NCBI GenBank assembly: GCA_041661045.1 | Contig: JBAZVE010000001.1 | Coordinates: forward strand, 120,001-152,000 | DNA from: Candidatus Saccharimonadota bacterium | GTDB lineage: Bacteria; Patescibacteriota; Gracilibacteria; UBA1369; 2-02-FULL-48-14 | Length of the DNA stretch: 32,000 nucleotides | Direction of reading: 5' to 3' | Part shown: positions 1,341 through 31,510 of the stretch, one piece after another | How the letters are laid out: each line of letters begins with the position of its first letter | Numbering within the stretch: the first letter of the stretch is position 1 | Made by a program: the position numbers and the translations under genes | Notes under the pieces: generated by a model | Seen by the model: the letters and a program-made list of their open reading frames with translations, nothing else | Databases searched by the model: none | What the model was told of the DNA's origin: nothing

Positions 1341-1931
1341 ATGGCATTGAACAGTAAAAACAGCGTGTTAATCCTTAGTCTCGGTACATTTTTGGCTTTA
1401 GGCTTTCTTTCCTCGAATTTTCTTTTTAAGAATAGGGCTATCCCAGTGACTAACGAGCCACCTACTACGGTGTCTTTTCATGCCTTAAGTATTGCGCGCG
1501 ATCTTGATTTGTACACACAGAGTGCCTCTCTCATTGTAATTGGCAGGGTAACAAAGGTGGGTGAACCTTATCTGGAAGATCAAGGTCTTGGTAGTAGACA
1601 AGAGGTCGAACTGGAACTGAGTGAAGTTCTGAAAGGAGATAGAAGTATGACCACGGTAAATGTGCTTGTTCGCGGCTATGAAATCGTTGAAGTTGATGGA
1701 GATGAGGCAACCATTATCCCCGGCAATGAGCCACCTTTATTTGTAGCGGGAGAGTATGTTCTCCTCTTCTTAGGAACAACCAGTCAGGGGGAATATGTGT
1801 CTTTTGCAGGCCCTTATGGTAAATACTTAATCGACAACGAGTTGAATGTGAGCAGCAGTGGCGACTTTTCAATGTCTCTCGAGGAGCTAAAGGAAAAGAT
1901 TAATGCAGTTTTGCAGTCTCAGCCCTTCTAA
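1341..1931 (+). CDS. Hypothetical N-terminally membrane-anchored protein, probably co-transcribed with the metalloprotease
   Basis: 196-aa ORF starting 17 nt after the protease stop. N-terminal hydrophobic segment VLILSLGTFLALGFLSSNFLF. No recognisable family. Confidence 0.55.
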   Translation: MALNSKNSVLILSLGTFLALGFLSSNFLFKNRAIPVTNEPPTTVSFHALSIARDLDLYTQSASLIVIGRVTKVGEPYLEDQGLGSRQEVELELSEVLKGDRSMTTVNVLVRGYEIVEVDGDEATIIPGNEPPLFVAGEYVLLFLGTTSQGEYVSFAGPYGKYLIDNELNVSSSGDFSMSLEELKEKINAVLQSQPF

Positions 1932-1972
1932 AAACCTGGTTTTTTTGGTATAATTAGGGGATTCATTTTGCT
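1923..1972 (+). promoter_or_regulatory. 50-bp repeat copy 1 with extended -10 promoter (TGGTATAAT) and palindrome AAAAACCTGGTTTTT
   Basis: cccttctaaaaacctggtttttttggtataattaggggattcattttgct is identical to 15596-15645. TATAAT at 1949-1954. It overlaps the stop codon of 1341-1931 and precedes the gene at 2013. Confidence 0.6.
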
Positions 1973-2012
1973 ATGTATGATGTTATTTTGCATTGCTTTT
2001 TAACATGATATA

Positions 2013-3233
2013 GTGCAAAATGAAATCATGGATGCTCAAGAGCCACAATACCATCGATCTATAGAACTCCCATCGAGCAGCTTTCTGCTCTTTGGACCAA
2101 GAGGTGTGGGTAAAAGCACATGGCTTCGTAAGACACTACCGAAGGATTCGCTTTTCATTGACCTTTTACACTATCCAACTTATTTAAGCCTAAGTAGAGA
2201 CCCAAGCCATCTGGAAGCCTTAATCAACACCAAAGATCCTCCACAGTGGGTTTGTATCGATGAAGTACAGAAAATTCCGCCCATTCTAGATGAAGTCCAC
2301 CGACTCATTGAGACTTATGGACTTCGTTTTGCCCTGAGTGGATCATCAGCCCGTAAACTCAAAAGAGGTGGAGCAAATCTATTGGCTGGCAGAGCATTGG
2401 CAATGGAAATGGAAACATTTTGCAGCGAAGAATTGGGGGAAGACTTTCATCTGGAAGAATCTATAGAGTGGGGAACCCTGCCCTTGGTCCAGAAAAAACT
2501 CAAAGAGAAGCTGACCACCGAAGCCATGGACACGCTTGAGACCTATGTATCGAGCTATCTTCGTGAAGAAATTAAGGAAGAAGGATTGGTACGCAAAGTA
2601 GATCCATTTTTGCGTTTTCTGGAAATAGCGGGCCTCATGAATGCCGAACAAATAAATTTGAGTGCTATAGCTCAACAAGCTGGCGTTCCAAGAAGTTCTA
2701 CAGAAACATACTTTTCAATTTTAGAAGACACCTTACTTACCTTTCGCTTACCAGCTTATCGACCACGAGTAAAAGTCCGGGAACAAACTCACCCCAAGCT
2801 CTATTGGTTTGATTCGGGAGTGGCCAGAGCGGCGGCCGGACTTTTGCGTGACCCAACAGACTCCACCTGGCAAGGTAAAGCTCTGGAGACTCTGATCTAT
2901 CATGAGCTCAGGGTCTACAATCAAAAATCCGGAAAACACAGGTCGATTTCATTTTATAAAACCAGCTCCGGACAAGAAATCGACTTTTTGATAGAAACTC
3001 AAAAAACAAGCTCCGACCAAAAAGCCGAAGTGGTACTCATAGAAGTAAAAAGATCAAAAACATGGAATGCCCGTTGGGAAAATCCTATGCGTTCCCTGAT
3101 GAGAATGAATAAAATGAGAGTTAAATCCGCTTATGGTGTGTATATGGGGAAAGAGTCTCTGTTTAAAGAAAATTTATCTATTCTACCAGCCGAGATTTTT
3201 TTAAAAAAACTCCATCAAGGAGAAGTTTTTTAG
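2013..3233 (+). CDS. AAA+ ATPase of the AAA_14/DUF4143 type (COG1373-like)
   Basis: Walker A LLFGPRGVGKSTWL, Walker B-like WVCIDEVQKIP, C-terminal DUF4143-like region. GTG start at 2013 (alternative ATG at 2028). Confidence 0.8.
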   Translation: MQNEIMDAQEPQYHRSIELPSSSFLLFGPRGVGKSTWLRKTLPKDSLFIDLLHYPTYLSLSRDPSHLEALINTKDPPQWVCIDEVQKIPPILDEVHRLIETYGLRFALSGSSARKLKRGGANLLAGRALAMEMETFCSEELGEDFHLEESIEWGTLPLVQKKLKEKLTTEAMDTLETYVSSYLREEIKEEGLVRKVDPFLRFLEIAGLMNAEQINLSAIAQQAGVPRSSTETYFSILEDTLLTFRLPAYRPRVKVREQTHPKLYWFDSGVARAAAGLLRDPTDSTWQGKALETLIYHELRVYNQKSGKHRSISFYKTSSGQEIDFLIETQKTSSDQKAEVVLIEVKRSKTWNARWENPMRSLMRMNKMRVKSAYGVYMGKESLFKENLSILPAEIFLKKLHQGEVF

Positions 3234-4182: not shown

Positions 4183-4530
4183 TTATTTTTCAAATGCAAG
4201 CCCTAAAAATTCTTTTTTTGAGCCAGTAAAAATTGTGCCTTTTTTATTTAATGTTTTATTAATCTTGCCTGTTTTTACTGCAATGTAAGCTGCATCACAT
4301 TCGGGGTCGTAACTTATACTGAGTTCATCTCCTTTTGAAAAATGAAAATCATTTACTATACATTTAGACTTGGTTTGATCCATCATGTCCAAAAGCTCTA
4401 TCCCTATAGTTTCACCAAGTGAATCTAAATCCACCATCAAATCAATGTTTTCAATTTTATGTGCACCCTCTGATGGTTTAAACTGGATTGAAAAAGTTTT
4501 ACCATTTTCAACAATATTTGGGTATTCCAT
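4183..4530 (-). CDS. DUF2283-like small protein (two degenerate units)
   Basis: Motifs LSISYDPECDAAYIAV and DLDSLGETIGIELLD resemble the DUF2283 pattern (YDxExDxxYI ... GxxxGIExL). Confidence 0.5.
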   Translation of the reverse strand: MEYPNIVENGKTFSIQFKPSEGAHKIENIDLMVDLDSLGETIGIELLDMMDQTKSKCIVNDFHFSKGDELSISYDPECDAAYIAVKTGKINKTLNKKGTIFTGSKKEFLGLAFEK

Positions 4531-4566
4531 GTGGGCTATGAGTTACTTAACTGTACAGGCTTGCCA

Positions 4567-4878
4567 CTAAGCAATGGGCAACAAAATGTATCTAGTCAAA
4601 ACCACACAAAGCAACGCGTATAGAACTATTAAAAGAACTTCTTCTCCTCTACTGATCGTTATCAACTTATTTTTTTTCTTATAGTAGTGAAAATAAAATC
4701 CGAAGAGAAATGCCATTAATAAAACAATACTTAATCTAACTAGGTTTGCCGCATCTATGTTTTCATAACTAAATCTATTGAACACGAGATAGCTAAGAAT
4801 AGAGAAAAAGACAAAGCCAGACACGAAAGTGGCACATAGAAGCAGCAAGTGTTTTAGAGCTTTGAAATGAGATTTCAT
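4567..4878 (-). CDS. Small membrane protein (about 3 TM helices)
   Basis: 103-aa ORF with hydrophobic stretches LLLLCATFVSGFVFFSILSYLVF, LVRLSIVLLMAFLFGFYF and VLLIVLYALLCVVL. No family recognised. Confidence 0.5.
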   Translation of the reverse strand: MKSHFKALKHLLLLCATFVSGFVFFSILSYLVFNRFSYENIDAANLVRLSIVLLMAFLFGFYFHYYKKKNKLITISRGEEVLLIVLYALLCVVLTRYILLPIA

Positions 4879-4896
4879 AATTTAGTTGTTAGATAT

Positions 4897-5289
4897 TTAT
4901 TCAACAGTATCGGGAACTTTTAATTCTTGGCCAACTTGAATCTGATTAGGGTAGTTGGATTTTGCTAGCGCATGAAGTTTTTTCGACACAGTCCTGGCTT
5001 CATCCCATGTGTAGCCAGTCATAGTATGCATTTCTTGTGGATCAACGATTTCTGCTGATATGTCAAAAATCTTCGACATAAGAATGATGTCATTTTCATC
5101 TATGCTAATCTCGATTACTTCATCTTCAGATCGATGACTTCCTATGAAATCACTAATCCTCCTACATTCTTCTTCTGATAGTTGGGTCCTTTGAATAAGC
5201 TCACTTAAACCAAAGGCGCCCAAGGGTACAGCTATAACTCTAATTATAATTTCTAATTCATCATGGGTAAGTAAAATTAATTTTGTCAT
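4897..5289 (-). CDS. Hypothetical acidic cytoplasmic protein with a weakly LysM-like C-terminus
   Basis: 130-aa ORF starting 18 nt upstream of the next gene's start. C-terminus ...SNYPNQIQVGQELKVPD resembles the end of a LysM domain. Confidence 0.5.
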   Translation of the reverse strand: MTKLILLTHDELEIIIRVIAVPLGAFGLSELIQRTQLSEEECRRISDFIGSHRSEDEVIEISIDENDIILMSKIFDISAEIVDPQEMHTMTGYTWDEARTVSKKLHALAKSNYPNQIQVGQELKVPDTVE

Positions 5290-5447
5290 AATGTGGTGAG
5301 TTAAAAACTATTAATGCAAATCATTGTCAAAAAAATCCTTTTCTTTTTCAGGTTGGAAGGCTGTCCCCTGATCTACATTGTTCGGATCGTGGATCACCAC
5401 AATAGTAATGATTTAAAAAATACCCGAGATTCCCTGCGAAAGTTTAT

Positions 5448-5747
5448 TTAGCTACTCTGTAACTTTACTCCACAGCGCGGGCAATGTTTAGGGTTAAAAT
5501 TCTTCCTCAAGTAAAATTCGCAAGCTGGGCAACGCCAATTTTTGAATGTAAAAACAACGGACCCCAAGAACATAAATACAAACAACATAGTCCAAGCGTC
5601 GTTTGGGGCACCAAGGAAAGTAATCCCCTCATCACTATTATTGAAAAATTGGAATCCAAAAACAATCACAAGCATCAGTGGCGTGACTATATAATATTGT
5701 TTTCGCTTTCTTTCCAGAAAATTTTGGATGATTTCGTACTCCTGCAT
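5448..5747 (-). CDS. Small membrane protein with a C-terminal zinc ribbon
   Basis: Two hydrophobic helices, then CPACEFYL...HCPRCGVKL (CxxC-N13-CxxC). Confidence 0.55.
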   Translation of the reverse strand: MQEYEIIQNFLERKRKQYYIVTPLMLVIVFGFQFFNNSDEGITFLGAPNDAWTMLFVFMFLGSVVFTFKNWRCPACEFYLRKNFNPKHCPRCGVKLQSS

Positions 5748-5756
5748 AATGTGGTC

Positions 5757-6296
5757 TTATTTTCTTGCTCTAAGTAATAATTTTACTTGAAGTAAATACA
5801 TTGGAATAAGTAACAACAATGAAATGGGAGATAACACTACTGTTACAAAAGAGAAGCCAAATATCAGTTCGACCCAGCCCGTTTTTTTCGTCAACCCCCC
5901 CATGGGATTTTTTAATTGGATTAAACTATAACCATGTAAAATGGTAAGCAAACCATATGTTATTCCAAAAGCTATATAAGCAGACGGATACTCATCGAGT
6001 TTTGAGGGATATGTGCTAATTTTTGGTAGATATACAAGAAGATCGTATGAAATATTAACCAAGATCAATAAAAAAGAGGAAACAGCGGTAACTTTACTAT
6101 TTTGTATTTGCCCCAAATAAATGAAGCCAGACAAAAACAGAGCATAACTAACGATTGATAAGAAAATCAGGGGGCCTAAGTTGAACTCAGGGAAATATGA
6201 ACCACCCTTGGCTTCTACTAGAAGTGTTAAAGGCACGCTTGAGATTAGTGATACTAACCCCGAGAAAGCAGCTAATTTAAAAAGATTTTTCTTCAT
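5757..6296 (-). CDS. Polytopic membrane protein; candidate immunity partner of the orphan RHS tip
   Basis: 179-aa ORF starting 7 nt after the stop of the orphan cassette. Five to six hydrophobic segments. No family recognised. Confidence 0.55.
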   Translation of the reverse strand: MKKNLFKLAAFSGLVSLISSVPLTLLVEAKGGSYFPEFNLGPLIFLSIVSYALFLSGFIYLGQIQNSKVTAVSSFLLILVNISYDLLVYLPKISTYPSKLDEYPSAYIAFGITYGLLTILHGYSLIQLKNPMGGLTKKTGWVELIFGFSFVTVVLSPISLLLLIPMYLLQVKLLLRARK

Positions 6297-6303
6297 AGTG
6301 CAT

Positions 6304-7248
6304 TTAGTTAGTATTTTCTTTTTCCGATTCTACCGGTATTCGAATCTCTTCACCAACATTAATAGTATTTGGATCTTCAAATCCATTAAACTCTGCAATT
6401 TCTTGATAGTCATCTCCAAAAAGTTCGTACATCGTATCGCCAGGTTGAACTGTATATACAGAATAGCCTCCCTCTTCATTATATGTAAGATCTTTTTCTT
6501 CTCCAAAAACAGTAATTAAGGTTTGTTCATAAACAAACATCCCAATTCTTACATACCAAGGTGCTTGGCCCTTTGTTGAGTGCCAGAGTACATCGTCCAT
6601 ATTGTTACTTATATCGCCATCATTGTGGTCGTTAGTTGGTCCGGAATTTATAAGGTCGCCAGAGTCACCTGCAGAAGGGATATCGCTAAAAAATGTTAGT
6701 AAATAACTCACAAATATTCCGATTGGAGTTTCTCCATCCGGATCTATATAGACAATTGGGTTATTTAAAGAATAAGAATAAAAATTCAACATCTGTGGGT
6801 CGAAGATTTTATTTTTCTTTAGAAATTCATTCATATCATTCGTGAATGTGAATTTCCTTTCAGCAAGGTCATCCAACTGTGCCGGATCCTGGCTGGAGAA
6901 TCTTCCTATCTCACTGTCATACCACCGGGCTTCGAAGTAGTAGAGGCCGAGGTCTTCATCGAGCTCTTTGTCTGTGAAGGAGTGCTCTGCGGGAGGCTCT
7001 CCGGTGCCGTCGTCCAGGGGAGTGTTTTGGAGCTCAGAGCCGTAGGGATAGTAGTCGTAAAGCTGGGTTACAAAACCATCCTCGTTCGTGATGAGGGCGG
7101 TTCCTCCCAAGTGGTCCTGGTGGAAATAGGAGAGGACTCCGTCTTCCAGTGCAGCCACCCTCTGGCCCCCGGCGAAGAGATAGCTGGTGAGGGTGCCGGG
7201 AGACACCGGTTCCGTTCCGCTGCCATCCGCTTTGCCGCGGAGTTCCAT
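6304..7248 (-). CDS. Orphan RHS C-terminal cassette: RHS core end plus a 141-aa variable tip with a LysM domain
   Basis: The frame stays open and homologous to the main RHS up to 7398 (NFNTAHTYSWNIKNQLASSGSKSFSYDASG...), bounded by an in-frame TGA at 7399-7401. The first ATG is at 7248. Core FTDKELDEDLGLYYFEARWYDSEIGRFSSQDP...NFYSYSLNNPIVYIDPDGE. LysM YTVQPGDTMYELFGDDYQEIAEFNGFEDPNTINVGEEIRIP. Confidence 0.8.
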   Translation of the reverse strand: MELRGKADGSGTEPVSPGTLTSYLFAGGQRVAALEDGVLSYFHQDHLGGTALITNEDGFVTQLYDYYPYGSELQNTPLDDGTGEPPAEHSFTDKELDEDLGLYYFEARWYDSEIGRFSSQDPAQLDDLAERKFTFTNDMNEFLKKNKIFDPQMLNFYSYSLNNPIVYIDPDGETPIGIFVSYLLTFFSDIPSAGDSGDLINSGPTNDHNDGDISNNMDDVLWHSTKGQAPWYVRIGMFVYEQTLITVFGEEKDLTYNEEGGYSVYTVQPGDTMYELFGDDYQEIAEFNGFEDPNTINVGEEIRIPVESEKENTN

Positions 7249-7433
7249 GAAGCGGTTGATGATGTAGTCCGTTGTGCCTTTTGTGCTGTCTGCCGTTTTG
7301 TAGCGGCTGCCTGAAGCATCGTAGGAGAAGGATTTAGAGCCGCTGGAAGCCAGCTGGTTCTTAATGTTCCAAGAATAAGTGTGGGCGGTGTTGAAATTTC
7401 AAGGAGCGATGATCTGAATTGATGGGGCACTTT

Positions 7434-8054
7434 TCACCATGAAAAAGAATTCTTAATGATTTTACCCAAAATATCCAACCAATTCAGCTCAGTGTCTGCA
7501 CCCACTTCGTAACAAGTACGAGCTTTCAAACAATCCTCTCCCGTGAGATCCATTTCAAACACCGCCCGATCAGTTTCAGGTATCTCTTCTAGAGATAAGT
7601 AATATTCCGCTTCACCACTTGTTATATCAAGCACAACAAACCTGGGGAGATCATTTTGGTCATCATACATTAGAATCTTTCCATTCGAAGTATCCACTCC
7701 TCCCCAGTAGCTTATATTTCCCTCTGCATCCGTTCCCGTACCCCTCTCAACATTTCCTTCTATGTATAGTTTATCTTCATGAAGTCTATACCAGTACAAG
7801 TATCGAACCAAATAATCATCATACTTAAAATCCATCAATTGGAGTTTCTCCATATCTGTGGGCCATCTCCAAACTTGGAACCTTCCATCACTAAAATGAA
7901 TATATTTATCTTGATCGTATATCTCATACTTTAAATTGGGATCTTTTTCAATGAAGATATAGGTTTCCAAGCAACCCCTAAAAAAGACTACTCCTAGAAG
8001 GACAAGGGCGATAATACCAACTGTCTTAGCCGTTTTTCTAGAAAGCTTATTCAT
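7434..8054 (-). CDS. N-terminally anchored 206-aa protein; candidate immunity protein of the main RHS tip
   Basis: ATG at 8054-8052 lies inside TATGAATAA, overlapping the RHS stop (8049-8047). Begins MNKLSRKTAKTVGIIALVLLGVVFFRGC. The longer 7434-8123 ORF would overlap the RHS gene by 77 nt. Confidence 0.65.
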   Translation of the reverse strand: MNKLSRKTAKTVGIIALVLLGVVFFRGCLETYIFIEKDPNLKYEIYDQDKYIHFSDGRFQVWRWPTDMEKLQLMDFKYDDYLVRYLYWYRLHEDKLYIEGNVERGTGTDAEGNISYWGGVDTSNGKILMYDDQNDLPRFVVLDITSGEAEYYLSLEEIPETDRAVFEMDLTGEDCLKARTCYEVGADTELNWLDILGKIIKNSFSW

Positions 8055-11000
8055 AGGTGTAATCAAAGTTAATGGATTCAGTAAATTCAGATATGAAGCC
8101 TGTGGTTTGTGCCGCAGCCGCACCAGTATTTAGTGCATCATATGTAGCCCCACCACTGTATTCAAATCCTGCATCGAAATGATACTTATCTGAAATGGAC
8201 ACATCTAAATCCCACGCACCATTTTCCAATTGGCTTCCCGTAACCTGCATCCCGGCTGTACCAATGGACATTTTCAAATCGGATGTTTCATTGAGACGCA
8301 GTCCCCTCTGCCCATCGGTACCTTCAATGGAAGTTTGCCCATTAAACTCTGCATTAGAAACAATTTCACCAACCTTGGATTGAAACTCATCCGTCCCCTT
8401 AATTGAATCAATCACATTCCCCCATTCAGACTGATTCCCTTCATTGATGCTCACGCTTCCGGGGTTCAGTTCAAGGGAGTGGGATAAGAGACTTGATGTG
8501 ATTGGGTTTGAAAACTGAAGACCCCATGCCAGTGTTAAACCTGCCGTATAGATTTCCCGCACACCTGGCACAAAAAATGTTGCCAGGTAGGTAGTTGTAG
8601 ATAACTCTCCCGTTGGATCTGTAATATTTACCGGATTATTCCTGCTGTAACTGTAGAAGTTCAAACTCTGCGGATCTGTGAGAATTTGGAAGATGCGGTC
8701 ATCCAGCTGGGCCGGGTCCTGGCTGGAGAAACGGCCTATGGCGCTGTCATACCACCGGGCTTCGAAATAGTAGAGGCCAAGGTCTTCATCGAGTTCTTTG
8801 TCGGTGAAGGAGTGGTCGGCGGGGGCAGGGCCGGAGCCGTCGTCCAGGGAGCTATCGAGGAGCTCGGAGCCGTAGGGATAGTAATCGTAAAGCTGGGTGA
8901 CGAAGCCTTCTTCGTTGGTGGTGAGGGCGGTGCCTCCCAAGTGGTCCTGGTGGTAATAAGTGAGGGCAGCATCTCCCACAGGAGTTTCCGGAGGGATTTT
9001 AAGTGCGGCCACTCTTTGGCTTCCCGCAAAGAGGTAATAGAGCTCCGTTCCATCGGAAGCGGGTTCGGAGCCGCTGCCATCCGCCTTGCCACGGAGTTCT
9101 CCGTAGCGGCCGAGGTAATAGTCCACGGTTCCCCTGGCAGAGTCCACCGTCTTCCAGCGGGTACCAGTGGCATCGTAACTGAAGGATTTACTTCCACTGC
9201 TGCTGAGCTGATTCTTTCTATCCCAGCTGTAGGTGTGAGCGGCATTGCCGGTGAGGTTTCCCTTGCTGTCGTAGGTGTATGCTATGCCATCCACAGAAGT
9301 CACGGCGTGGGGATTGGCGCCGCTGTGAGTGCCGGAAGAAGAACCGGTGCCCTCATAAAGCAGGCTGCCAATGTCGCTCTTGTACACCATGTTTCCAAGG
9401 CTGTCATACTCATAAGTCTCACTGTAGTCTCCTCCGCTTAGGCCGGTGGTCTCTGCGGAGAGCAGGCGATTCAAGTCATCGTAGGCATAGGAAATGGTTT
9501 TGGCCGTGGGGCTTGTGCTCGTGTCCAGAATCTCCAAAATGTTCCCGACATTGTCGTAGCTGTAGGAAAGATCCTGAATTTCCGTCCAGGAAGTGCTGGT
9601 GAAGAGAGGATCATAAATGCCCGTGGTGCTTTTGCCTGTGAGGCGATATGCCTGAGCGGGGTCGTAGACATTGGTGGTCACGGTGCCGTTCCCGTAAGTG
9701 GTGCTTGCCGTTTGGGAAGAGGGAGAATAGTCCATGTCGGAAACGATGTCTCGTAAAGTAGCGCCTGTCCCTTCGGTTACTTTTTCAAGAAGACCGGCTG
9801 TGTTGTATTCGTAATTTACGGTTGCTGCAAAAGAGGGATACGCAATCTTTTTCAGACGGCTGAGGACATCGTATTCATATTGAAAAATATACGGGATGGT
9901 GTCGAGCTTTCTTGTTTCTTTTGCAAGGTTCCCGAGGCTGTCGTATTTATCATTGATCACCGAGAAATTTGTCATCAAGATTTTGTGGATTTTGCCTACC
10001 CCATTGATCGCAGTATCGTAGACAAAGGAAACATCTTTGGCAGAAGTTCCGGCATCCCAATCTTCAAAAACCATCCGATTGAGCGGATCGTAGCCCCATG
10101 TGAGCGACTGGCCCGCGGGGTCCACTTGGGAGACTAGATTCCCATTTTTATCGTAGGTGTAAGTCCATTCTCCAAAATCCCCTTCGGCCGGATCATGGAG
10201 ATCTTCTTGCAGGGTTTTGCGCCCCAAAGAATCGTAGCCGAAGTTTCTTAAGTTGCCCTGGCTATCGGTAAGAGTGAGGAGCAGGCCACGGTCATCATAA
10301 TCGTAAGTCGTTGTGTAAGTATCTATTCCATTCTTCTCTCGTACGGCACTCAAAGCTCCGGCGGCGTTATAGAGATAGGTTTTGCTGTTTCCATTCCCAT
10401 CCGTGACCTCTTCCATCCATGGGGAATAGTCATGTGTTTCCGTAGAGACGGGGGTCACCACGGTGAGGGGCCGACTGAGTGCATCGTAAGACATTTCTGT
10501 GCTGTACGCAGAGGCGTCTCTACCAAATATGCTGCTTGAAGTTTCGTAAGGAAAACTTTGGCTGGCAAGGTTTCCCCGTTCGTCGTACCAAAAGTCTACG
10601 GTCGTGTAGACCCCGCCCTCTGCTGAAGTATTGCTTTGGATGGCCCGTCCGAGGCCGTCAAAATAACTTACGGTTTCCATGGAAATGCCATCCACCGTGC
10701 TTTCCGTGGAGACGGAGCTTGGGAAGGAGTCGTCATCGTAGCTGCTTGTAGACACCAGCACCGAAGTCCCAAAGGTGGGATGCGGAATGGAGCTTGTTAA
10801 CACTCGCCCAAAGCCGTCGTAAGTGTTTGAGCGCGTAAAGCCATTTGCGTCCACGGAGCTGAGGAGTTGTCCGGTAGCTGCTTCGTATACGGTACTCGTT
10901 GTTTGTGAAAGGGCATTCGTTGTGCTTGCTGGGTAAAGATTGTTTGAATCATAGTTCATGTCCAGCGCGTTTCCCTTGGCATCCACTACTCGCTCAACGA

Positions 11001-13821
11001 GTCCATAAGCATTGACTGTGTAGGTGGAGCCAAACCATTGATTCCCTTCACTGAGCCAAGATTTTTCACTCGTAAGATTCCCCGTGGAAACATTCCCGAG
11101 CGGGAGGCCGTCGTAGGTGCGACGGCTTTTAGCGATTGCGGAGCCGCTTGCATCTTTCAAGATCTCTTCTGAGATTTTGTTGCGAATTAGCCCGGAGCTG
11201 TCCGCTGCGTACGCATAGGATAGTACGGTTTTTTCGTGCGCATGAGGAATATCCACAAATCCTCCGCTGCTGTCCGCCGCCACTTCACCGAAGTTTGTAA
11301 CTTTAAATATATTTCCGTCCGCATCGTATTGATAAGTTGTAGCTTTGTCCTTGTGAGCGCTGCCACCGAAGTCCATGGAAACACTGGCGGTTTTGTACAC
11401 AAAATCATTTTCATAGCCAAGATCCAAGGTTTCCCACGAGTCCCAGACTCTTTGGAAAAGATTGCCGGACTCATCATAAACTTCCGTTTTATAGGCGCGG
11501 CCGATGAGTGGAAACTCTTCTTGATGGTAATAAGAAATGGTTTCCTTTCCCTCCTCACTGCGCGACACCGTTTCGAAGCCGGCGAACTGACGGTTCATTT
11601 CATCTTCATACAAATATTTTCCACCGGAGTAGTCGTAGGTGATGGTGCTTTCTTCCCCAAGGCCATCCGAAGTGGTGACACTGGAGACCAAGTTCATCAC
11701 AAAGGGCATGGCGGGGTTATCGAAAGAGGTGGAGGGCGCATAGGAAACTGTGGTTTCCGCCCCTTTGGAGTGATGAATGGTTTCGAGCAGTTCTGGAGTG
11801 GCGTTGTTGAGATACATTCTTTTAGTGCTGCCCCCATGGGACTCAGAAAAAACCACATCCGCAAAGTTATCCCCATCCACATCAAAAATCTGAACGCCTT
11901 TTGGGGTTCTATAACCTTCTGCAAAACTCACGGGGACCGTATAAGCACTGCCTTCGTCCCATCCCGTCCCATCTCCCTTATTAATATATACGGCATTCTC
12001 AATGCTGGAATCTGCCGAGTAAACAATGTCCGCTAAGCCATCTCCATTGACATCCACCATTTCTGCAACATCCATCATGATATCTCCGCTATCCCAGAAA
12101 TAGATTGGGATGCTATAACTACTTTCTTCAGTCCACCCCGTTCCATCGCCACGATTGAGATAAACAGATTGGTAGGGACTCCCTTGATACCTTGATTCTA
12201 TAATATCCACCAAGCCATCTCCATTAATGTCTGCCAGTTTTACACCCTCGTCATCCTCTCCTTCAGAATTAAAAATAACTGGTATGGATATCTCGCTCAC
12301 TTCTTCCCATGTTTCCATTTCTGGATTGAAGAGGTAGATATTCTTTGAAATACCACCGTGACTCAAAGACTGAACAAAGTCAGGGAAAGAGTCTCCATTG
12401 ATGTCCATAACACGAATCCCCTCATCGGCCATATAACCACTATTGAACCTTAGTGGAATCGAGTAAGTGGTGTCTTCAACCCAAGAGGAAGACGCCTCGT
12501 CAAAGATGTAGCCTACCCGAACATCGCTAGAGGATTCCATGGAAGCATAAACGATATCGTTGAATCCATCTCCGTTCAAATCACTCATACGCGTACCCCT
12601 CATATAATTTCCTCCTGTTCCCCAAAAAGAGACAGGAATTGAATAGCTTGTATCTTCGGTCCAGCCTGTTCCATCGCCGTTATTCACATAGACCTCTCGG
12701 TAAGTTCTTCCACTATCGTAGTAGGAATTGAGAAGATCCATAAATCCATCCCCATTGACATCACTGATGTCCACACCTTTATCTTCATTTCCTCCCTCCA
12801 CATAAAAATACACCGGGATCTCGTAGCCGCTTACTTCTTCCCAGCCTTTTTCGCTCTCGGAATATTCAAAACTTGTAGGGTGGAGCGTGCTTACTTCACC
12901 AGTCGTGCTTTGAGCGGATTCCGTGACAGAAGAGAGTAAGGATTGAACGGTGTCGTCCGGGGTGGAGTAATCGAGACTGTATTTTCGAGTCCATACCCCA
13001 TCAACAAATGCGGTGATCTCACTGACTCGATAATCGGTTTGAACTTCAAAGCCGGTATTGTAAAAAGAAGAAACATCTTCTCGGCTCTCCAAAGTGAATT
13101 CAATGGCAAAAGATCCATCGGTGGATCCATGTCCGGTATAATGGATGCTTTCTGGATAAATTTGCCCATTCTCTTCAAAGTATTCGTATCGTACAAAGTT
13201 ATCATTGGAGTCTCGCACTTCCTCAAGCATCCACTTGTAGACGCGGCTTGCATCTGCCGGGTCCTCTTGCCTACTTTCAGCGGCTGCCCCAAAACTATAA
13301 ACGGTTCCGGACTTATCTGTAACAGACCAAGAGTTGTCCGAATTGAATGAGTAATTTAGAAAAGAGCCATCCTCGACTTTACTGCTGTACTCCCCGTAAG
13401 GACTTCCACTTATGGGAACAAGCTCTCCACTGAGTGAAGAACTAAAATTGTTTTCGTCGTACATGGTATTTACACCGGTTTTGTTGAGTCGCGTGATTGC
13501 AGGGATACCCAGTGACCAACCGGATCCATAAAAACTATCCCAGCCCATGCCTTGGCTGTTGTAGTTTAGGCTGAGAGAGGGCTGCAAGCCACTGCGCCCC
13601 GCAGGCAGAGTGAGGGGAAGAGAATAAGTGAAAGCTCCACTAAAAGAGCTGTCTTGCGCACCTTGGTCCAATCGAACCCGACTGTTATTGATTTCGTAAG
13701 TCTGATCATAAAACCCTTCGTTGTTATTTGTAGCATCTGCAAAGCTTCTAGGCGCGAAACTTGTGAATGCAAAAAAACTCAGCAGAAGGGTGGATAGGGC
13801 TCTCACTTTTTGGCTGAGCAT
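8047..13821 (-). CDS. Secreted SpvB / FG-GAP / RHS-repeat polymorphic toxin (TcB-TcC-like fusion), 1,924 aa
   Basis: Signal peptide MLSQKVRALSTLLLSFFAFTSFAPRSFA. SpvB-like FTYSLPLTLPAGRSGLQPSLSLNYNSQG..GWSLGIPAITR. Six DxNGDGxxD FG-GAP/VCBS repeats (aa ~350-660). Many YD repeats. RHS core end ...YYFEARWYDSAIGRFSSQDP...NNPVNITDPTGE. Confidence 0.95.
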   Translation of the reverse strand: MLSQKVRALSTLLLSFFAFTSFAPRSFADATNNNEGFYDQTYEINNSRVRLDQGAQDSSFSGAFTYSLPLTLPAGRSGLQPSLSLNYNSQGMGWDSFYGSGWSLGIPAITRLNKTGVNTMYDENNFSSSLSGELVPISGSPYGEYSSKVEDGSFLNYSFNSDNSWSVTDKSGTVYSFGAAAESRQEDPADASRVYKWMLEEVRDSNDNFVRYEYFEENGQIYPESIHYTGHGSTDGSFAIEFTLESREDVSSFYNTGFEVQTDYRVSEITAFVDGVWTRKYSLDYSTPDDTVQSLLSSVTESAQSTTGEVSTLHPTSFEYSESEKGWEEVSGYEIPVYFYVEGGNEDKGVDISDVNGDGFMDLLNSYYDSGRTYREVYVNNGDGTGWTEDTSYSIPVSFWGTGGNYMRGTRMSDLNGDGFNDIVYASMESSSDVRVGYIFDEASSSWVEDTTYSIPLRFNSGYMADEGIRVMDINGDSFPDFVQSLSHGGISKNIYLFNPEMETWEEVSEISIPVIFNSEGEDDEGVKLADINGDGLVDIIESRYQGSPYQSVYLNRGDGTGWTEESSYSIPIYFWDSGDIMMDVAEMVDVNGDGLADIVYSADSSIENAVYINKGDGTGWDEGSAYTVPVSFAEGYRTPKGVQIFDVDGDNFADVVFSESHGGSTKRMYLNNATPELLETIHHSKGAETTVSYAPSTSFDNPAMPFVMNLVSSVTTSDGLGEESTITYDYSGGKYLYEDEMNRQFAGFETVSRSEEGKETISYYHQEEFPLIGRAYKTEVYDESGNLFQRVWDSWETLDLGYENDFVYKTASVSMDFGGSAHKDKATTYQYDADGNIFKVTNFGEVAADSSGGFVDIPHAHEKTVLSYAYAADSSGLIRNKISEEILKDASGSAIAKSRRTYDGLPLGNVSTGNLTSEKSWLSEGNQWFGSTYTVNAYGLVERVVDAKGNALDMNYDSNNLYPASTTNALSQTTSTVYEAATGQLLSSVDANGFTRSNTYDGFGRVLTSSIPHPTFGTSVLVSTSSYDDDSFPSSVSTESTVDGISMETVSYFDGLGRAIQSNTSAEGGVYTTVDFWYDERGNLASQSFPYETSSSIFGRDASAYSTEMSYDALSRPLTVVTPVSTETHDYSPWMEEVTDGNGNSKTYLYNAAGALSAVREKNGIDTYTTTYDYDDRGLLLTLTDSQGNLRNFGYDSLGRKTLQEDLHDPAEGDFGEWTYTYDKNGNLVSQVDPAGQSLTWGYDPLNRMVFEDWDAGTSAKDVSFVYDTAINGVGKIHKILMTNFSVINDKYDSLGNLAKETRKLDTIPYIFQYEYDVLSRLKKIAYPSFAATVNYEYNTAGLLEKVTEGTGATLRDIVSDMDYSPSSQTASTTYGNGTVTTNVYDPAQAYRLTGKSTTGIYDPLFTSTSWTEIQDLSYSYDNVGNILEILDTSTSPTAKTISYAYDDLNRLLSAETTGLSGGDYSETYEYDSLGNMVYKSDIGSLLYEGTGSSSGTHSGANPHAVTSVDGIAYTYDSKGNLTGNAAHTYSWDRKNQLSSSGSKSFSYDATGTRWKTVDSARGTVDYYLGRYGELRGKADGSGSEPASDGTELYYLFAGSQRVAALKIPPETPVGDAALTYYHQDHLGGTALTTNEEGFVTQLYDYYPYGSELLDSSLDDGSGPAPADHSFTDKELDEDLGLYYFEARWYDSAIGRFSSQDPAQLDDRIFQILTDPQSLNFYSYSRNNPVNITDPTGELSTTTYLATFFVPGVREIYTAGLTLAWGLQFSNPITSSLLSHSLELNPGSVSINEGNQSEWGNVIDSIKGTDEFQSKVGEIVSNAEFNGQTSIEGTDGQRGLRLNETSDLKMSIGTAGMQVTGSQLENGAWDLDVSISDKYHFDAGFEYSGGATYDALNTGAAAAQTTGFISEFTESINFDYTYE
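8050..8604 (-). other. Variable C-terminal tip (185 aa) of the RHS protein, after DPTGE
   Basis: Sequence after DPTGE (LSTTTYLATFFVPGVREIYTAGL...INFDYTYE) has no similarity to the orphan tip beyond the first ~12 residues and matches no family I recognise. Confidence 0.7.
8605..9249 (-). repeat. RHS core-end block homologous to the orphan cassette at 6730-7398
   Basis: The protein alignment is continuous from AHTYSW to DPxGE. DNA stretches are near-identical, e.g. gtcataccaccgggcttcgaa(a/g)tagtagaggcc(a/g)aggtcttcatcgag. Confidence 0.85.
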
Positions 13822-13985: not shown

Positions 13986-15584
13986 ATGAAAAATATTCTT
14001 ATTGCCCTTCTGAGTCTTATGCTTGCCGTCCCTGGTGTGCTGGCGTCCGCCAATGCTGATATGAGCGACTCTGAGCTGGGAGAATATTTTATATTTGAGA
14101 CGGGGACCTGGTGGGATTATGTGAATTATATAGACACCGCTTCCGACTACGACACCTCAGAGATTACTTTTGTGGATGATATTGAAGATGCCACGACGCG
14201 TGCAGAGAGACTTCCCTGCAGAATTTCTCAATGTTTTAGCGTGGGTATGGGGCAAATCTACATCGAGTACTTTATAGAAGATGGGAAAATTTACATGGAT
14301 ACTTACGACGGGTACGACACGAATGATTTTCTGGTTTTCTCTCTTGATGGACTCGAGGATGTCCAAGTTGATGCATTGTGGGGATATCTTTTGGGTTATG
14401 ACAGTTTGAGTGGTTACGAGACCAGCATGCAATGTAGTGTGGACTTCGGAACTTACGCCTATCAAGGCTACGAAGGTGATTCCATCCAACACACTTGCAG
14501 CACTTTCCTAAAAGGTCCGGATGAAGTGGAACACCAAGTGGTGAGCTCCGAGTACTACTTGAGAGGCGTTGGGAAAGTCTTAACCGAGACCAAGCTCTAT
14601 CAGGACGGCGAGTGGCAAATCACTTATAGCCTTGTGCTCAATGAAACCAGCGTTGATTTGGAGGAAGTTGAAGGTCTGACTGAAGAAGCGGATGGAAAGG
14701 AAGTGATCGATACGGTGGTGGAAGAAATGAATGAAGAAGAAGAGGAAGAAGAGGAAGAAGAGGTGGTTTTGGCGGCGGAAGAAAGTAGCTTCTCCGATGT
14801 CGAATCGGATCACGATAACTACGCAGCGGTTGAATATCTCTACGAAGAAGGTGTGATTGGAGGATATGAGGATGGATCCTTTAAACCTGAGAATACCGTG
14901 AATCGTGCCGAGCTTCTGAAGATTTTGGTGGAAGGCCAGGGCATCACACCGGATGCAGAGCTCTATAAAAACTGTTTCCCCGATGTCACTACAGACTGGT
15001 ATGCCAAATATGTATGCTACGCCAAAAGCCAAGCGTGGATTTCCGGCTATAGCAACGGATACTTTCTTCCTGCCGATCCTGTAAATAAAGTGGAGGCCCT
15101 CAAAATGCTGCTCAATTCTCAAAGTATTGAGATCACCGTTGGAGACCAAAGCTCATTTGATGACTTCTCTGAGAATGAATGGTTCGCCCCTTATGTGGCC
15201 AAAGCTCAAGCACTTGGGATTTTGGAGGAAACCGGCAGTAGTTTTCATGCCGATGAGGATCGAACGCGTGGTGGCATCAGTGAAAATTTGTATCGGCTTC
15301 TCTTGAGTCTTCAGGTTGATGGCGTCTCCAGCGCCATGTCTGAAACTACTTGTCTGCAATACGACGCTTCCTTCGACCTGGATGAGTTCGAAGCAGAAAC
15401 GGAGGACATTATGGAGGCGTACGGATTTGAAGACATTTGGGCGATCGATGCCTTTATTGACCAGATTAGGGGCCTGGATATCTTTGAGCTTCTGTCTGCC
15501 CAACTGGAGATGGACCTTGAAGAAGAGTGTGGAGAATCCGTTGATGATGCTTCCGCGCTGGCTGAGGCCATGTTGGAGGAATAA
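13986..15584 (+). CDS. Secreted cell-surface protein with three SLH domains and an acidic linker
   Basis: Signal peptide MKNILIALLSLMLAVPGVLASANA. SLH motifs FSDVESDHDNYAAVEYLYEEGVIGGYEDGSFKPENTVNRAELLKIL, FPDVTTDWYAKYVCYAKSQAWISGYSNGYFLPADPVNKVEALKML and FDDFSENEWFAPYVAKAQALGIL. Confidence 0.85.
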   Translation: MKNILIALLSLMLAVPGVLASANADMSDSELGEYFIFETGTWWDYVNYIDTASDYDTSEITFVDDIEDATTRAERLPCRISQCFSVGMGQIYIEYFIEDGKIYMDTYDGYDTNDFLVFSLDGLEDVQVDALWGYLLGYDSLSGYETSMQCSVDFGTYAYQGYEGDSIQHTCSTFLKGPDEVEHQVVSSEYYLRGVGKVLTETKLYQDGEWQITYSLVLNETSVDLEEVEGLTEEADGKEVIDTVVEEMNEEEEEEEEEEVVLAAEESSFSDVESDHDNYAAVEYLYEEGVIGGYEDGSFKPENTVNRAELLKILVEGQGITPDAELYKNCFPDVTTDWYAKYVCYAKSQAWISGYSNGYFLPADPVNKVEALKMLLNSQSIEITVGDQSSFDDFSENEWFAPYVAKAQALGILEETGSSFHADEDRTRGGISENLYRLLLSLQVDGVSSAMSETTCLQYDASFDLDEFEAETEDIMEAYGFEDIWAIDAFIDQIRGLDIFELLSAQLEMDLEEECGESVDDASALAEAMLEE

Positions 15585-28279: not shown

Positions 28280-29938
28280 TTACATTAGACTACCTGAATA
28301 CCAAGAATACAGAGCAGGTGGAGAACCTTCTTTCCAATGTCTTACCCGAGAGGAACCGTCTGAACTAAAAATAATATCCATTTCATTGAGGCCAGTTTCT
28401 GCATCTTTTCCCAACTGTAAGACTCCATGTTCTTCATCAAATACAATAAATCCACTTTGAATTGCACTTGAAACTCCTGTAAGAAAATTCGCCCTACGCG
28501 CGTTTGCGTTTGGAAATTTTTCTTGTAGTTTAGTGGTTAAAAACCTTACTGGATCTACATCCCCAACTTGCAATGCAATACTTCGCCTCACTAGCATTAA
28601 AGCCTCTCGTAATTCATTGTTGGTTTCTATTTCATTGGCATCCCAATTCTCTATTCTTCTACCACGAACGGATTCTGCATAGTTAGGGTCGAATATCATT
28701 CGAGCATAACGCTTTTGCAGATAATCAGGCAGATCGCTTGGTATAATGGGTTCGAGTTCTGAGGCTGGACGCCAATTTGGCAGACTTATAGCTAAACCAT
28801 TAGCTATATCTTGTCCGCGTGATGACCAGAGTTCAGAATAGTAGGATTCTAATTGAGTTCCTACGCTATCAAGTTCTTGGAGTATGGAAGGATATTCCCT
28901 GAAGTACCACCTGGCTCTGGCTATGTCTTGTCTTGCATAGACTACACTTCCAAAAATAAGATGATTCTTCCCTCTTGATATCTGGTCTTCTGTATATTGC
29001 TTGATCCTCTCCAGTAAAACTGTCCTGATAGCATCAGCGATGGATTGAGCCCTAGCTTCAGATTTGTCTTGCGTTTCACACAATTCAAGCGAAGCAAGAT
29101 TGACTGCTAAATCATGAACTGCTGAGCCAGTCGTTGAAAGTACCGGGTAACTAAGGGGTTGTTTAGTAATGTTACGGAATCTCTCGAGACTGGCCTCGAA
29201 TCGTGGGTTCAATAAATTGCTTGCGGTGGCCACCACTTGATCCTTGAGGTTTTTAGTACTAGCGAAATCTAGAAAAGCTTGAAGTGCCTCAACTTCCGCT
29301 AGCAATGCCCCATCCATATGGGAATATCTATGGAATGTGTCTTTGATACAATGCTTTACAATCTCAGGATTCGCTAAATTATCAGCTGTCAGCAACTCGT
29401 TGAGCCAATAGTTGTTATCTATGTCCGGAAAAAATTCGCTCATGTTCTCTCTTTCAACCCAGGCTAAATAAGGTGCTCCTTGAAAGCAGTGTGGAATATG
29501 TTCCGCTAACCTAGCAAAAGCCTGCTGCGCCACTTTGGGTGAACATCCGCACTCCTCGGCCATCCACCACAATATTTCGGAAAAATTTTCGGGCGATTTT
29601 ATTCGATTGACCCCAGCTAGTTTTTCATCATCCTCTCCTGCCCATTCAGATATTTCAGGATAGTACTTAGCTAAAATAATTCTGTTTCTCAAGCTCAATC
29701 CTCTTATAGCTTCAGGTGTCAGATATTCGTGGAGTGCCATAAAACAGCTAGCCTTTTCTTCCCATGTGAGACCCAGTTCATAAATATCAAAAAAGACCTT
29801 TGTGAATTCCCCAGGGTTATTTACTAAATCCTGGCCTCCCTTCTCTTTTGGATCACCAAACCCATAGGGAGTACTCCAGGTCGATTCCTCTGCTCCACGG
29901 AGCGGGGATGCAGTATGTTCAGATTGAGACTTACTCAT
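28280..29938 (-). CDS. Hypothetical 552-aa alpha-helical protein, paralog of the 30107-31510 product
   Basis: Shared blocks with the 467-aa protein: NPGEFTKVFF/DPGNFLTYFA, AKYYPEIS/AKYFPNLN, SEFFPDIDNNYW..NPEIVKHCI/REYFPDFDLQAW..HPEVVERIA. No family recognised. Confidence 0.7.
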   Translation of the reverse strand: MSKSQSEHTASPLRGAEESTWSTPYGFGDPKEKGGQDLVNNPGEFTKVFFDIYELGLTWEEKASCFMALHEYLTPEAIRGLSLRNRIILAKYYPEISEWAGEDDEKLAGVNRIKSPENFSEILWWMAEECGCSPKVAQQAFARLAEHIPHCFQGAPYLAWVERENMSEFFPDIDNNYWLNELLTADNLANPEIVKHCIKDTFHRYSHMDGALLAEVEALQAFLDFASTKNLKDQVVATASNLLNPRFEASLERFRNITKQPLSYPVLSTTGSAVHDLAVNLASLELCETQDKSEARAQSIADAIRTVLLERIKQYTEDQISRGKNHLIFGSVVYARQDIARARWYFREYPSILQELDSVGTQLESYYSELWSSRGQDIANGLAISLPNWRPASELEPIIPSDLPDYLQKRYARMIFDPNYAESVRGRRIENWDANEIETNNELREALMLVRRSIALQVGDVDPVRFLTTKLQEKFPNANARRANFLTGVSSAIQSGFIVFDEEHGVLQLGKDAETGLNEMDIIFSSDGSSRVRHWKEGSPPALYSWYSGSLM

Positions 29939-30106: not shown

Positions 30107-31510
30107 TCAGATGTCCCCCTTTATAGCTATACTCGGGAAAAGATCGCGAAGACTTGCGATGCGGGGATCTGGGTTAACTGTCGATCTGGCAGCATTACGG
30201 AAGAGACCTTGTACAGCGCCTATAACCCGTGGATCGTCGGTTACGGCCTCAGTAAGATATACCAGCTCACGGTCACTCCAATCCCTACCCCCGTTCAGCC
30301 AAGACAAAAAATTCTCAACACGATTAAAATTCAAAACAATGGGTGGCTTCAAATCTGGATCCCTATGAATAGCCACTTCCCTATCCAGCAAATAATCTCG
30401 GACTATTGGATCAGCCAAGAACATATCTGCCCATTGCTTGAGTTTTTCTGAATGACCTACTCGACTTCTATCTTTATCTCTTTCCCGTCCACTCATCTTT
30501 TGGAATTTGGCTCTCATCTCCGCTTCAATTCGGTCTATAATGGAAGCGATAGCGTCTTTTGTTTGTAAGGAGATTTCTCTTGATCCCTGTTCATCCACTA
30601 ACTGTTTAAGAAGAAGGGTTATTCCAACGAAAAAGGAGATAGTTGGTGTCGAGTGCAGAGCTTTAATATCCTGGTCGCGAACTGATCTAGACACTCCCTC
30701 AATTTCACCATTAAATCGCTTCATAAGTGCTTCTCGGGTCATAGCCCTAACAACTTCTTCCTTTTCATAGCGCTCAGCTAGAGTGAAAAAACTTTCCAAC
30801 TCAGCCAGCATTTCTTGTTCAGTAGGTGTAATCCTATACGGCCTACCCTGAATAGCATGAGCTATCCGTTCAACAACTTCAGGATGACTTTCTATGTCCT
30901 CCATGAGTCTGGGCTCCCAGGCTTGAAGGTCAAAATCTGGAAAATATTCTCGTATTTTACGCCGGTCAGTAAAGACCAGATCAGGCCTATCCCCCAAGAT
31001 TTCAGGTGTCTTTCCCTCTAATTTTTTCATGCATGCCTCTCCCACTTGTAGATTGCACCGGGACATAAGAATAGATCCGAGCAACTCATCATATGAAAGT
31101 GAGGGGTCACCTGTAGAAAGTCTTTCCAACTCACTGGTAAAGTAGCTTGGGAAGACAGCCTCCTCCTCCCCACTGATACTATTCAAGTTAGGGAAGTACT
31201 TGGCCAGTTCCCTTCTTATTGCATAAGAAGCCCTTTGAACAGACTCCACCAAAAGTTTACTGCGTTGACGATCACTTAGAAGTGCGTCCAAGGCATCAGC
31301 AATAATCTTTCTGTAATCCTCATCCTCTAAAAGGCGTGTATACTCCTGAGTGCGTGCAAAATAGGTAAGAAAGTTTCCGGGGTCTTTTTTAATCTCTTCG
31401 CAATGCCACAATGCTAATTCGCACTCGCCTTTTTTCCCTGTATCTGGTGCTTGATCTTTTAACATTTTTGGATTGGAGTAAATGGTCAATGCAGAGTCGG
31501 GACCTGCCAT
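30107..31510 (-). CDS. Hypothetical 467-aa alpha-helical protein, paralog of the 28280-29938 product
   Basis: Long ORF with TTGACA (31552-31547) upstream. Colinear similarity blocks to the 552-aa protein. No family recognised. Confidence 0.7.
   Translation of the reverse strand: MAGPDSALTIYSNPKMLKDQAPDTGKKGECELALWHCEEIKKDPGNFLTYFARTQEYTRLLEDEDYRKIIADALDALLSDRQRSKLLVESVQRASYAIRRELAKYFPNLNSISGEEEAVFPSYFTSELERLSTGDPSLSYDELLGSILMSRCNLQVGEACMKKLEGKTPEILGDRPDLVFTDRRKIREYFPDFDLQAWEPRLMEDIESHPEVVERIAHAIQGRPYRITPTEQEMLAELESFFTLAERYEKEEVVRAMTREALMKRFNGEIEGVSRSVRDQDIKALHSTPTISFFVGITLLLKQLVDEQGSREISLQTKDAIASIIDRIEAEMRAKFQKMSGRERDKDRSRVGHSEKLKQWADMFLADPIVRDYLLDREVAIHRDPDLKPPIVLNFNRVENFLSWLNGGRDWSDRELVYLTEAVTDDPRVIGAVQGLFRNAARSTVNPDPRIASLRDLFPSIAIKGDI

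Follow-up and report, generated by a model that had tools for sequence, protein, structure and literature searches.

A 32,000-nucleotide stretch of the Candidatus Saccharimonadota bacterium assembly GCA_041661045.1 (contig JBAZVE010000001.1, positions 120,001 to 152,000; hereafter the window) carries on its reverse strand, on which all features of the window given below lie unless stated otherwise, an RHS/YD-repeat polymorphic toxin gene whose product ends in a 185-amino-acid (aa) C-terminal tip, the putative toxin cargo (8050..8604), and which is overlapped at its 3' end by a gene for a 206-aa protein (7434..8054). Based on sequence comparisons and structural modelling, the tip is here newly assigned to a toxin family which resembles colicin M, has not been annotated so far and is accompanied by a conserved, anchored candidate immunity partner. 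It is very probable that this family is truly related to the colicin M (ColM) fold, and on balance, with distinctly less assurance, we favour the further view that the tip would act, by analogy with colicin M, as an envelope-precursor (lipid II) hydrolase which is neutralised by the 206-aa protein.

The tip family and its probable relationship to colicin M

Translation of the RHS gene places the boundary between shell and tip at the DPTGE motif (8605..8619), where the conserved C-terminal core of the RHS protein, with its autoproteolysis motif region, ends; the protein reads ...NNPVNITDPTGE up to this boundary and LSTTTYLATFF...INFDYTYE from there to the stop codon. The first 31 residues of the tip form a hydrophobic/amphipathic linker helix, and residues ~32-184 the conserved domain. 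An earlier note on this DNA, made from its letters alone, had given the coordinates and the DPTGE motif exactly (the end coordinate it chose is the D of DPTGE), and its statement that the tip matches no recognised toxin family holds for Pfam, NCBIfam, PHROGs and the sequences of the PDB, in all of which the tip is without a match. Likewise, 58 relatives of the tip that were scanned against the family libraries hit no meaningful family, and nothing but noise was obtained when the PDB was searched by sequence and by profile with the tip, the family alignment (A2) and an alignment of the immunity proteins (A4).

Among 5.8 billion proteins, a word-indexed search yielded a single relative of the tip. 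The family itself came to light when 1.84 billion cluster representatives were searched exhaustively by HMMER with a two-sequence profile; about 100 of them matched at E < 1e-3 and 40 at E < 1e-10. In nearly all real matches the toxin domain (tip residues ~32-184) lies at the very C-terminus of proteins ranging from 77 to 3258 aa, and the carriers comprise RHS/YD cores, a MuF protein (PF04233; P0115), a Peptidase_C39 protein and a LamG protein as well as short secreted proteins. In many members the RHS core YSRNNPVN..DPxG is also found upstream of the toxin domain, and one protein of 2059 aa (P0014, from locus L093) combines the same SpvB/FG-GAP/YD architecture as the window protein with the same tip family. 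Tails after the domain occur exceptionally, namely in P0032, P0043, P0065 and P0072; in P0032 (354 aa) some 190 further residues, which include a signal-like segment and a C-terminal transmembrane helix, come after the domain, probably reflecting a toxin-immunity read-through or a gene-call fusion. Many family members come from Firmicutes-like gut assemblies, and tblastn searches with the family against the INPHARED phages and the PLSDB plasmids were without a match. Taken together, the sequence searches indicate that the tip belongs to a real, unannotated and widely scattered C-terminal toxin family.

With respect to conservation, an alignment of 130 domains (in tip numbering) has H42 in 82%, S43 in 94%, P48 in 96%, D109 in 98%, L110 in 94%, W131 in 91%, D139 in 99%, Y141 in 96%, N159 in 85% and Q166 in 88% of the sequences, and F or Y at position 143. 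Position 142 is occupied by D (78%), N (20%) or H (1%), the His being confined to the subfamily of the window tip. H42, S43, P48, D109, N159 and Q166 have no equivalent in ColM.

The structure prediction that the earlier note had called for was carried out with AlphaFold2. Based on the alignment of 58 sequences it produced a model with a predicted local distance difference test score (pLDDT) of 89.2 and a predicted template modelling score of 0.82, in which the first 11 residues alone are of low confidence (an alignment of two sequences gave a pLDDT of 33). The model is of the alpha+beta type with a long beta-hairpin and displays the fold of the ColM catalytic domain. In a Foldseek comparison with the PDB, 11 of the 12 best matches are colicin-M-family chains, comprising colicin M (2xtr, 2xtq, 3da4), pectocins M1 and M2, syringacin M and PaeM, and the remaining one is the C-terminal domain (CTD) of BtpeA. 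This list is strikingly uniform despite the moderate scores discussed below; a fold search of BFVD with the tip gave nothing convincing.

Profile comparisons point to the same family, and the colicin-M-like catalytic domain core is accordingly placed at tip residues 32-184 (8053..8511) by Foldseek, hhalign and reciprocal hidden Markov model (HMM) searches. Against an alignment of six ColM catalytic domains (ColM, pectocin M1, pectocin M2, syringacin M and homologues encoded by Serratia and Pantoea plasmids), hhalign aligned the tip family over 35-64 columns with a probability of 76-81% (E 1-2e-5), compared with 0.2% (E 0.33) for the reversed ColM alignment as control; the six-member alignment is needed, as a single ColM sequence gave a probability of 7%. 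The alignment pairs the long beta-hairpin (G...NGxW) and the DxYDF motif, and the run with 58 sequences adds the last helix and strand. In turn, a ColM HMM run unfiltered against the 130 family domains matched 14 at E < 0.01 and 36 at E < 0.1 (best 1.2e-5), compared with one reversed sequence at E < 0.01, and some of these reciprocal alignments span about 100 of 150 model positions. A pairing by eye of HSLxxNP in the tip with HYLFGNG in ColM was dropped, since the comparison of the N-terminal profiles gave no support for it.

Colicin M requires a divalent cation and cleaves lipid II hydrolytically at the link of undecaprenol to the pyrophosphate (PMC8469651, PMC5821083). Its essential residues are D226, which ligates the metal, Y228, D229, H235 and R236 (PMC8469651, PMC5821083), and its signature reads DxYDx5HR (PMC5821083, PMC8469651). 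The counterpart of D226-K-Y228-D229-F in the hhalign alignment is D139-K-Y141-H142-F-D144 of the tip (8173..8190, read as GATAAGTATCATTTCGAT). D226 and Y228 thus correspond to D139 and Y141, both of which are nearly invariant in the family, and D229 corresponds to H142, a position held by His in the window tip and by D or N elsewhere.

The downstream gene and its linkage to the tip

The gene for the 206-aa protein overlaps the RHS gene by 8 nucleotides (ATGAATAA; 8047..8054), its start codon lying inside the last codons and the stop codon of the RHS gene. In the reverse complement around 8047-8064 the sequence runs GAT TAC ACC TAT GAA TAA, and the 206-aa open reading frame (ORF) begins within TATGAATAA with the ATG at 8054-8052. 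A GTG start at 8123, which would give a protein of 229 aa, was rejected because the homologues begin at the MNK of the ATG. No obvious Shine-Dalgarno sequence precedes the ORF. The earlier note had read the start/stop overlap as implying translational coupling: the overlap is real and kept in all three close loci described below, and it is compatible with coupling of the 206-aa gene, which on this arrangement is probable.

The 206-aa protein begins MNKLSRKTAKTVGIIALVLLGVVFFRGC and, as had been noted before, has a single hydrophobic segment, which by the Kyte-Doolittle scale covers residues 7-35 and follows a K/R-rich N-terminus; the anchor proper is placed at residues ~11-27 (7974..8024). By the positive-inside rule the anchor would be oriented N-in/C-out, and the protein is predicted to consist of a signal-anchor and an extracytoplasmic domain. 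A pair of Cys residues in this ectodomain (C175-L-K-x-R-T-C181; 7512..7532) is invariant in the three-sequence alignment A4 and might form a disulfide. The protein is without a sequence match in Pfam, PHROGs or the PDB. A reading of FFRGC as a lipoprotein signal was rejected, since the lipobox departs from the canonical form and locus L001 lacks the Cys.

The close subfamily comprises three loci, i.e., the window (identical to the Logan contig L003), L001 from Hainich groundwater, which was the sole return of the metagenome scan, and L002 from the Logan assembly of SRR22387935. The tips of L001 and L002 are 57-60% identical to that of the window and the downstream proteins 41-56%, and the ATGAATAA overlap and the downstream gene are kept in all three. 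Since the same tip, downstream gene and overlap recur in two independent metagenome contigs, the arrangement is more than chance. In L001 (1-627) the RHS core and the tip are pseudogenised, with in-frame stops on both sides of YIRNNPVNLVYPS (after NFY and before ELT) and after DYGSMG, and the overlapping immunity homologue (628-1218) is intact beside the decayed tip, the pattern that would be expected of an immunity gene under selection. In L002 (1-513) the toxin domain is joined straight to YARNNPVN, without the ITDPTGE motif and the hydrophobic linker of about 25 residues; this junction may be due to recombination or deletion and would leave the tip uncleavable. Of note, L001 contains a second orphan RHS tip with small membrane proteins of its own (1809-3096).

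Altogether, ten loci of the family were inspected, the three close ones and seven distant ones (L004, L005, L006 and L090-L093). In all ten, the product of the gene following the toxin has a transmembrane or signal segment at its N-terminus. Five downstream proteins from Firmicutes are mutually homologous (BLASTP E 1e-21 to 3e-4 for nine of the ten pairs), and the profiles of the candidate-phyla-radiation (CPR)-type and the Firmicutes-type downstream proteins match each other in hhalign with a probability of 82-89% (E 1e-5 to 2e-6), including a C-terminal SLEEFxExEQ-like motif. The 189-aa downstream protein of L006 has no match among the other downstream proteins of the ten loci. Judging from these comparisons, toxin and downstream gene appear to travel as a module across phyla in nine of the ten loci. 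The 206-aa gene, always directly downstream and co-varying with the toxin, thus behaves as a cognate immunity gene would. The proposal of the earlier note that it is the candidate for this role is borne out by the linkage, by the intact gene beside the L001 pseudogene and by the remote homology. In L005, the called downstream gene (4981-5703; 240 aa) has at its C-terminal end a fragment similar to the final 30 residues of the domain of the toxin (...LELGALANNAAVYSQKT...NFYTTR), which suggests that gene calling has fused to it what is left of another, decayed copy of the toxin.

The RHS carrier, a proposed mode of action and its competitors

The carrier of the tip is a TcB-TcC-like fusion of 1924 aa (8047..13821). 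From N- to C-terminus it consists of a Sec-type signal, SpvB, an FG-GAP propeller, TcdB_toxin_midN, RHS repeats and the tip, with Pfam E-values of 2e-29 for RHS_repeat, 7e-23 for SpvB, 3e-22 for FG-GAP_3 and 5e-20 for TcdB_toxin_midN. The Sec-like signal peptide, assigned by eye, is MLSQKVRALSTLLLSFFAFTSFAPRSFA, with the cut before DA, and the core segment ...YFEARWYDSAIGRFSSQDP...YSRNNPVNITDPTGE lies directly N-terminal of the tip. With its shell repeats, an SpvB/TcdB N-terminal plug region, a DPxG core with a variable tip and an adjoining downstream gene, it has the features of an RHS/YD polymorphic toxin. The G + C content is 0.49 in the RHS core and declines to 0.44 in the tip, 0.38 in the 206-aa gene and 0.35 further downstream, a pattern that toxin/immunity cassettes which are exchanged commonly show.

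According to the mechanism we propose, the RHS protein would be exported via Sec, its YD-repeat shell would enclose the 185-aa tip, and the tip would be released by a cut at the ...DPTGE core; this cut, the motif of which is present here, is taken from established RHS/TcC biology. With a Sec signal at its N-terminus, the protein looks suited to simple export in a cell of the monoderm type. By analogy with colicin M, the tip would attack lipid II or a close undecaprenyl-pyrophosphate-linked precursor at the outer face of the cytoplasmic membrane of the target and would separate the head group of sugar and peptide from its lipid carrier, so that wall synthesis stops; D139, as the metal-binding Asp, and Y141 of the DxY(D/N/H)F motif would act in catalysis. 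In monoderm-type targets no membrane would have to be crossed for such an attack on a polyprenyl-pyrophosphate-linked precursor. The 206-aa protein, an extracytoplasmic protein with a type II anchor, would neutralise the toxin at the surface of the producer's membrane. Wall enzymes with Amidase_2 and SpoIID domains are encoded in the window, and the producer therefore makes peptidoglycan and has lipid II to protect. The RsmI encoded nearby has its best genome match, at 60% identity, in a Patescibacteria metagenome-assembled genome, in line with a producer that probably belongs to this group; a scan of the GTDB representative genomes with the tip gave no match. That the tip acts in the envelope or periplasm, which the earlier note had derived from the anchored immunity protein, gains independent support from the modelled fold and from the resemblance of the motif region to colicin M.

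A number of observations weigh against lipid II hydrolysis by a colicin-M-like tip. First, the Foldseek scores are moderate (probability at most 0.98, E about 2e-3, TM-score 0.37-0.51, query-normalised 0.22-0.51, root-mean-square deviation 6-10 Å), the N-terminal halves of the tip family and of ColM share no profile similarity, the match being limited to at most the C-terminal two-thirds, and the tip has no match to Pfam PF14859 at E <= 1, this family also being absent from the 25 most-matched families of the 58 relatives (E <= 10). Second, the DxYDx5HR signature is incomplete, as the H235/R236 dyad is without a counterpart throughout the tip family and the D229 position is a His in the window tip and its two closest relatives, and ColM domains with degenerate motifs, e.g. 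PmnH, have been reported to be inactive (PMC8469651). Third, neither TcA nor VgrG/PAAR nor any other known delivery partner is visible in the 32-kb window. Finally, homology of the immunity protein to Cmi or to the YebF-like ColM immunity proteins (PF13995) was considered and rejected, as there is no Pfam match and hhalign gave probabilities of 1-12%. By signature and by model the tip is not a member of PF14859; most likely, the two have ancestry and fold in common.

The alternative that survives best, which we nevertheless regard as unlikely, retains the colicin-M-like fold and assumes another chemistry or substrate, such as cleavage of a different polyprenyl-phosphate-linked intermediate (the carriers of wall teichoic acid, S-layer glycan or capsule), or a sequestration of lipid II without hydrolysis. 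The departures from the ColM signature just mentioned (the absent HR dyad and the His at position 142) and the six conserved residues that are the family's own (H42, S43, P48, D109, N159 and Q166) speak for it, as does the finding that a catalytically dead pectocin M1 is still able to lyse cells (PMC5821083); the near invariance of the equivalents of D226, the metal ligand, and of Y228 speaks against it, and an extracytoplasmic immunity protein fits this alternative and lipid II hydrolysis equally well. Given similarly little credence is a scenario in which the tip family is a distinct and ancient branch of the ColM fold that serves as RHS/MuF/YD cargo in monoderms and Patescibacteria and has a catalytic constellation (H42/S43, D109, D139, Y141, N159 and Q166; no HR dyad) and an immunity family of its own; its target would be a polyprenyl-linked precursor other than or besides lipid II, and it would possibly be aimed at the wall synthesis of the episymbiont's host and not at kin.

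Less probable still is that the likeness to colicin M is an artefact of modelling or searching and that the tip is a toxin of another fold and target, possibly cytoplasmic, with the downstream protein as an accessory factor. Under this assumption it would have to be explained why three independent lines, namely the fold search, the profile-profile comparison with its reversed control and the reciprocal HMM, converge on the same family and motif; moreover, the fact that the downstream proteins are exported or anchored in 10 of 10 loci argues against a cytoplasmic target. Finally, a tip that inserts into or forms pores in membranes by means of its hydrophobic N-terminal stretch (YLATFFVPGVREIYTAGLTLAWGLQF), with the anchored immunity protein blocking insertion, would agree with the hydrophobic nature of the first 31 tip residues and with the membrane-anchored immunity proteins that are typical of pore formers, too (PMC5821083), but is highly improbable in view of the conserved part, which is a soluble domain of the alpha+beta type and contains invariant acidic residues, of the L002 copy, which has no hydrophobic stretch yet keeps the domain and the immunity gene, and of the lack of any structural match to pore-forming colicins in Foldseek.

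Neighbouring genes, related systems and significance

Directly after the candidate immunity gene lies an orphan RHS C-terminal cassette (6304..7398) with a homologous core, which by eye is about 70-80% similar to the C-terminus of the main RHS protein, and a different, short tip ending in LysM (1e-6); the in-frame homology runs further upstream, without a start codon before an internal Met. Arrays of displaced or alternative tips typically look like this. Behind the orphan tip a group of small genes of low G + C content (0.35) extends over 4183-6296, coding for a 179-aa polytopic membrane protein, a 99-aa protein with a transmembrane segment and a zinc ribbon, a 130-aa protein, a 103-aa protein with a transmembrane segment and a DUF2283 protein; possibly, they represent orphan immunity genes stacked one after another. 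The first of them (5757..6296), whose hydrophobic segments were assigned by eye and which has no Pfam match, is a candidate immunity protein for the orphan tip. Divergent from the RHS gene, a secreted and very acidic SLH-domain protein is encoded at 13986-15584 on the forward strand (Pfam SLH 5e-26), and it fits an S-layer-bearing, monoderm-type envelope of the producer. Two adjacent ORFs of 552 and 467 aa (28280-29938 and 30107-31510), both without a Pfam match, share motifs by eye, e.g. ...YFPD(I/F)D...W..., and may be paralogues.

As such, the toxin/immunity logic of the RHS locus is ordinary. The BC subunits of Tc toxins and RHS effectors (TcdB-TccC, YenBC, RhsA) likewise have SpvB, an FG-GAP propeller, TcdB_midN, an RHS cocoon and a DPxG core, and in them, too, the tip is variable, an immunity gene follows it and orphan tips form an array; they differ from the window locus in the known delivery partner that its 32 kb do not contain.

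With respect to the tip, the colicin M family (ColM, pectocins M1 and M2, syringacin M and pyocin M/PaeM; PF14859), i.e., lipid II hydrolases dependent on Mg2+ or Ca2+, provides the best and essentially the only structural neighbours of the model. By profile comparison both appear to have the C-terminal half of beta-hairpin, DxYD, helix and strand; both are C-terminal toxin modules, and both would act outside the cytoplasmic membrane, in the case of the tip by analogy. Known ColM immunity proteins are membrane-anchored and extracytoplasmic (PMC5821083), and the 206-aa protein resembles them in its layout of an N-terminal anchor, an extracytoplasmic domain and two Cys residues (PMC5821083). In contrast to colicin M, the tip has no PF14859 match and no HR dyad, its second Asp is replaced by His, its N-terminal half is unalignable by profile, and its immunity family is unrelated to Cmi. 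Colicin-M-type lipid II hydrolases have been described in two reviews as TonB-dependent bacteriocins of Proteobacteria only (PMC5821083, 2018; PMC8469651, 2021), whereas the tip is carried by an RHS shell, or in the family by MuF, YD or C39 proteins, and the hosts of the family are Patescibacteria-like bacteria and Firmicutes.

A functional analogue is TelC/TipC of Streptococcus intermedius, TelC being an LXG toxin of the type VII secretion system and a lipid II phosphatase of the Lipocone superfamily. TelC is a polymorphic-toxin cargo of a monoderm which degrades lipid II from outside the membrane and is countered by a membrane-anchored extracellular immunity protein (PMC5555719, PMC6193138, PMC12419801). 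However, the folds differ, TelC being absent from the 50 best Foldseek PDB matches to the tip model, and so does the export, i.e., type VII secretion with LXG as opposed to Sec and an RHS shell for the window protein. The highest TM-score to the tip model (query-normalised 0.51, probability 0.97) belongs to the CTD of BtpeA, solved in complex with its immunity protein BtpiA (PDB 9jdi), an effector-immunity pair of the type VI secretion system of Bacteroides fragilis. This CTD likewise is the C-terminal cargo domain of a polymorphic effector, but has no detectable sequence relationship to the tip, the A2 profile being without a match to it at E <= 10; in the literature searched, no account of the biochemical activity of BtpeA/BtpiA was found.

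If the tip family is a working relative of colicin M, Firmicutes and ultra-small Patescibacteria would also use the ColM fold, as a cargo delivered by contact or by secretion. An immunity family not described before would come with it, as would a catalytic motif lacking two of the residues thought to be essential in ColM, and nature would provide a test of which residues colicin M cannot do without. The known arsenal directed against lipid II, a validated antibiotic target, would also be widened, and a toxin whose predicted target is the envelope would be added for a candidate-phylum bacterium, a subject on which the literature searched yielded almost nothing.

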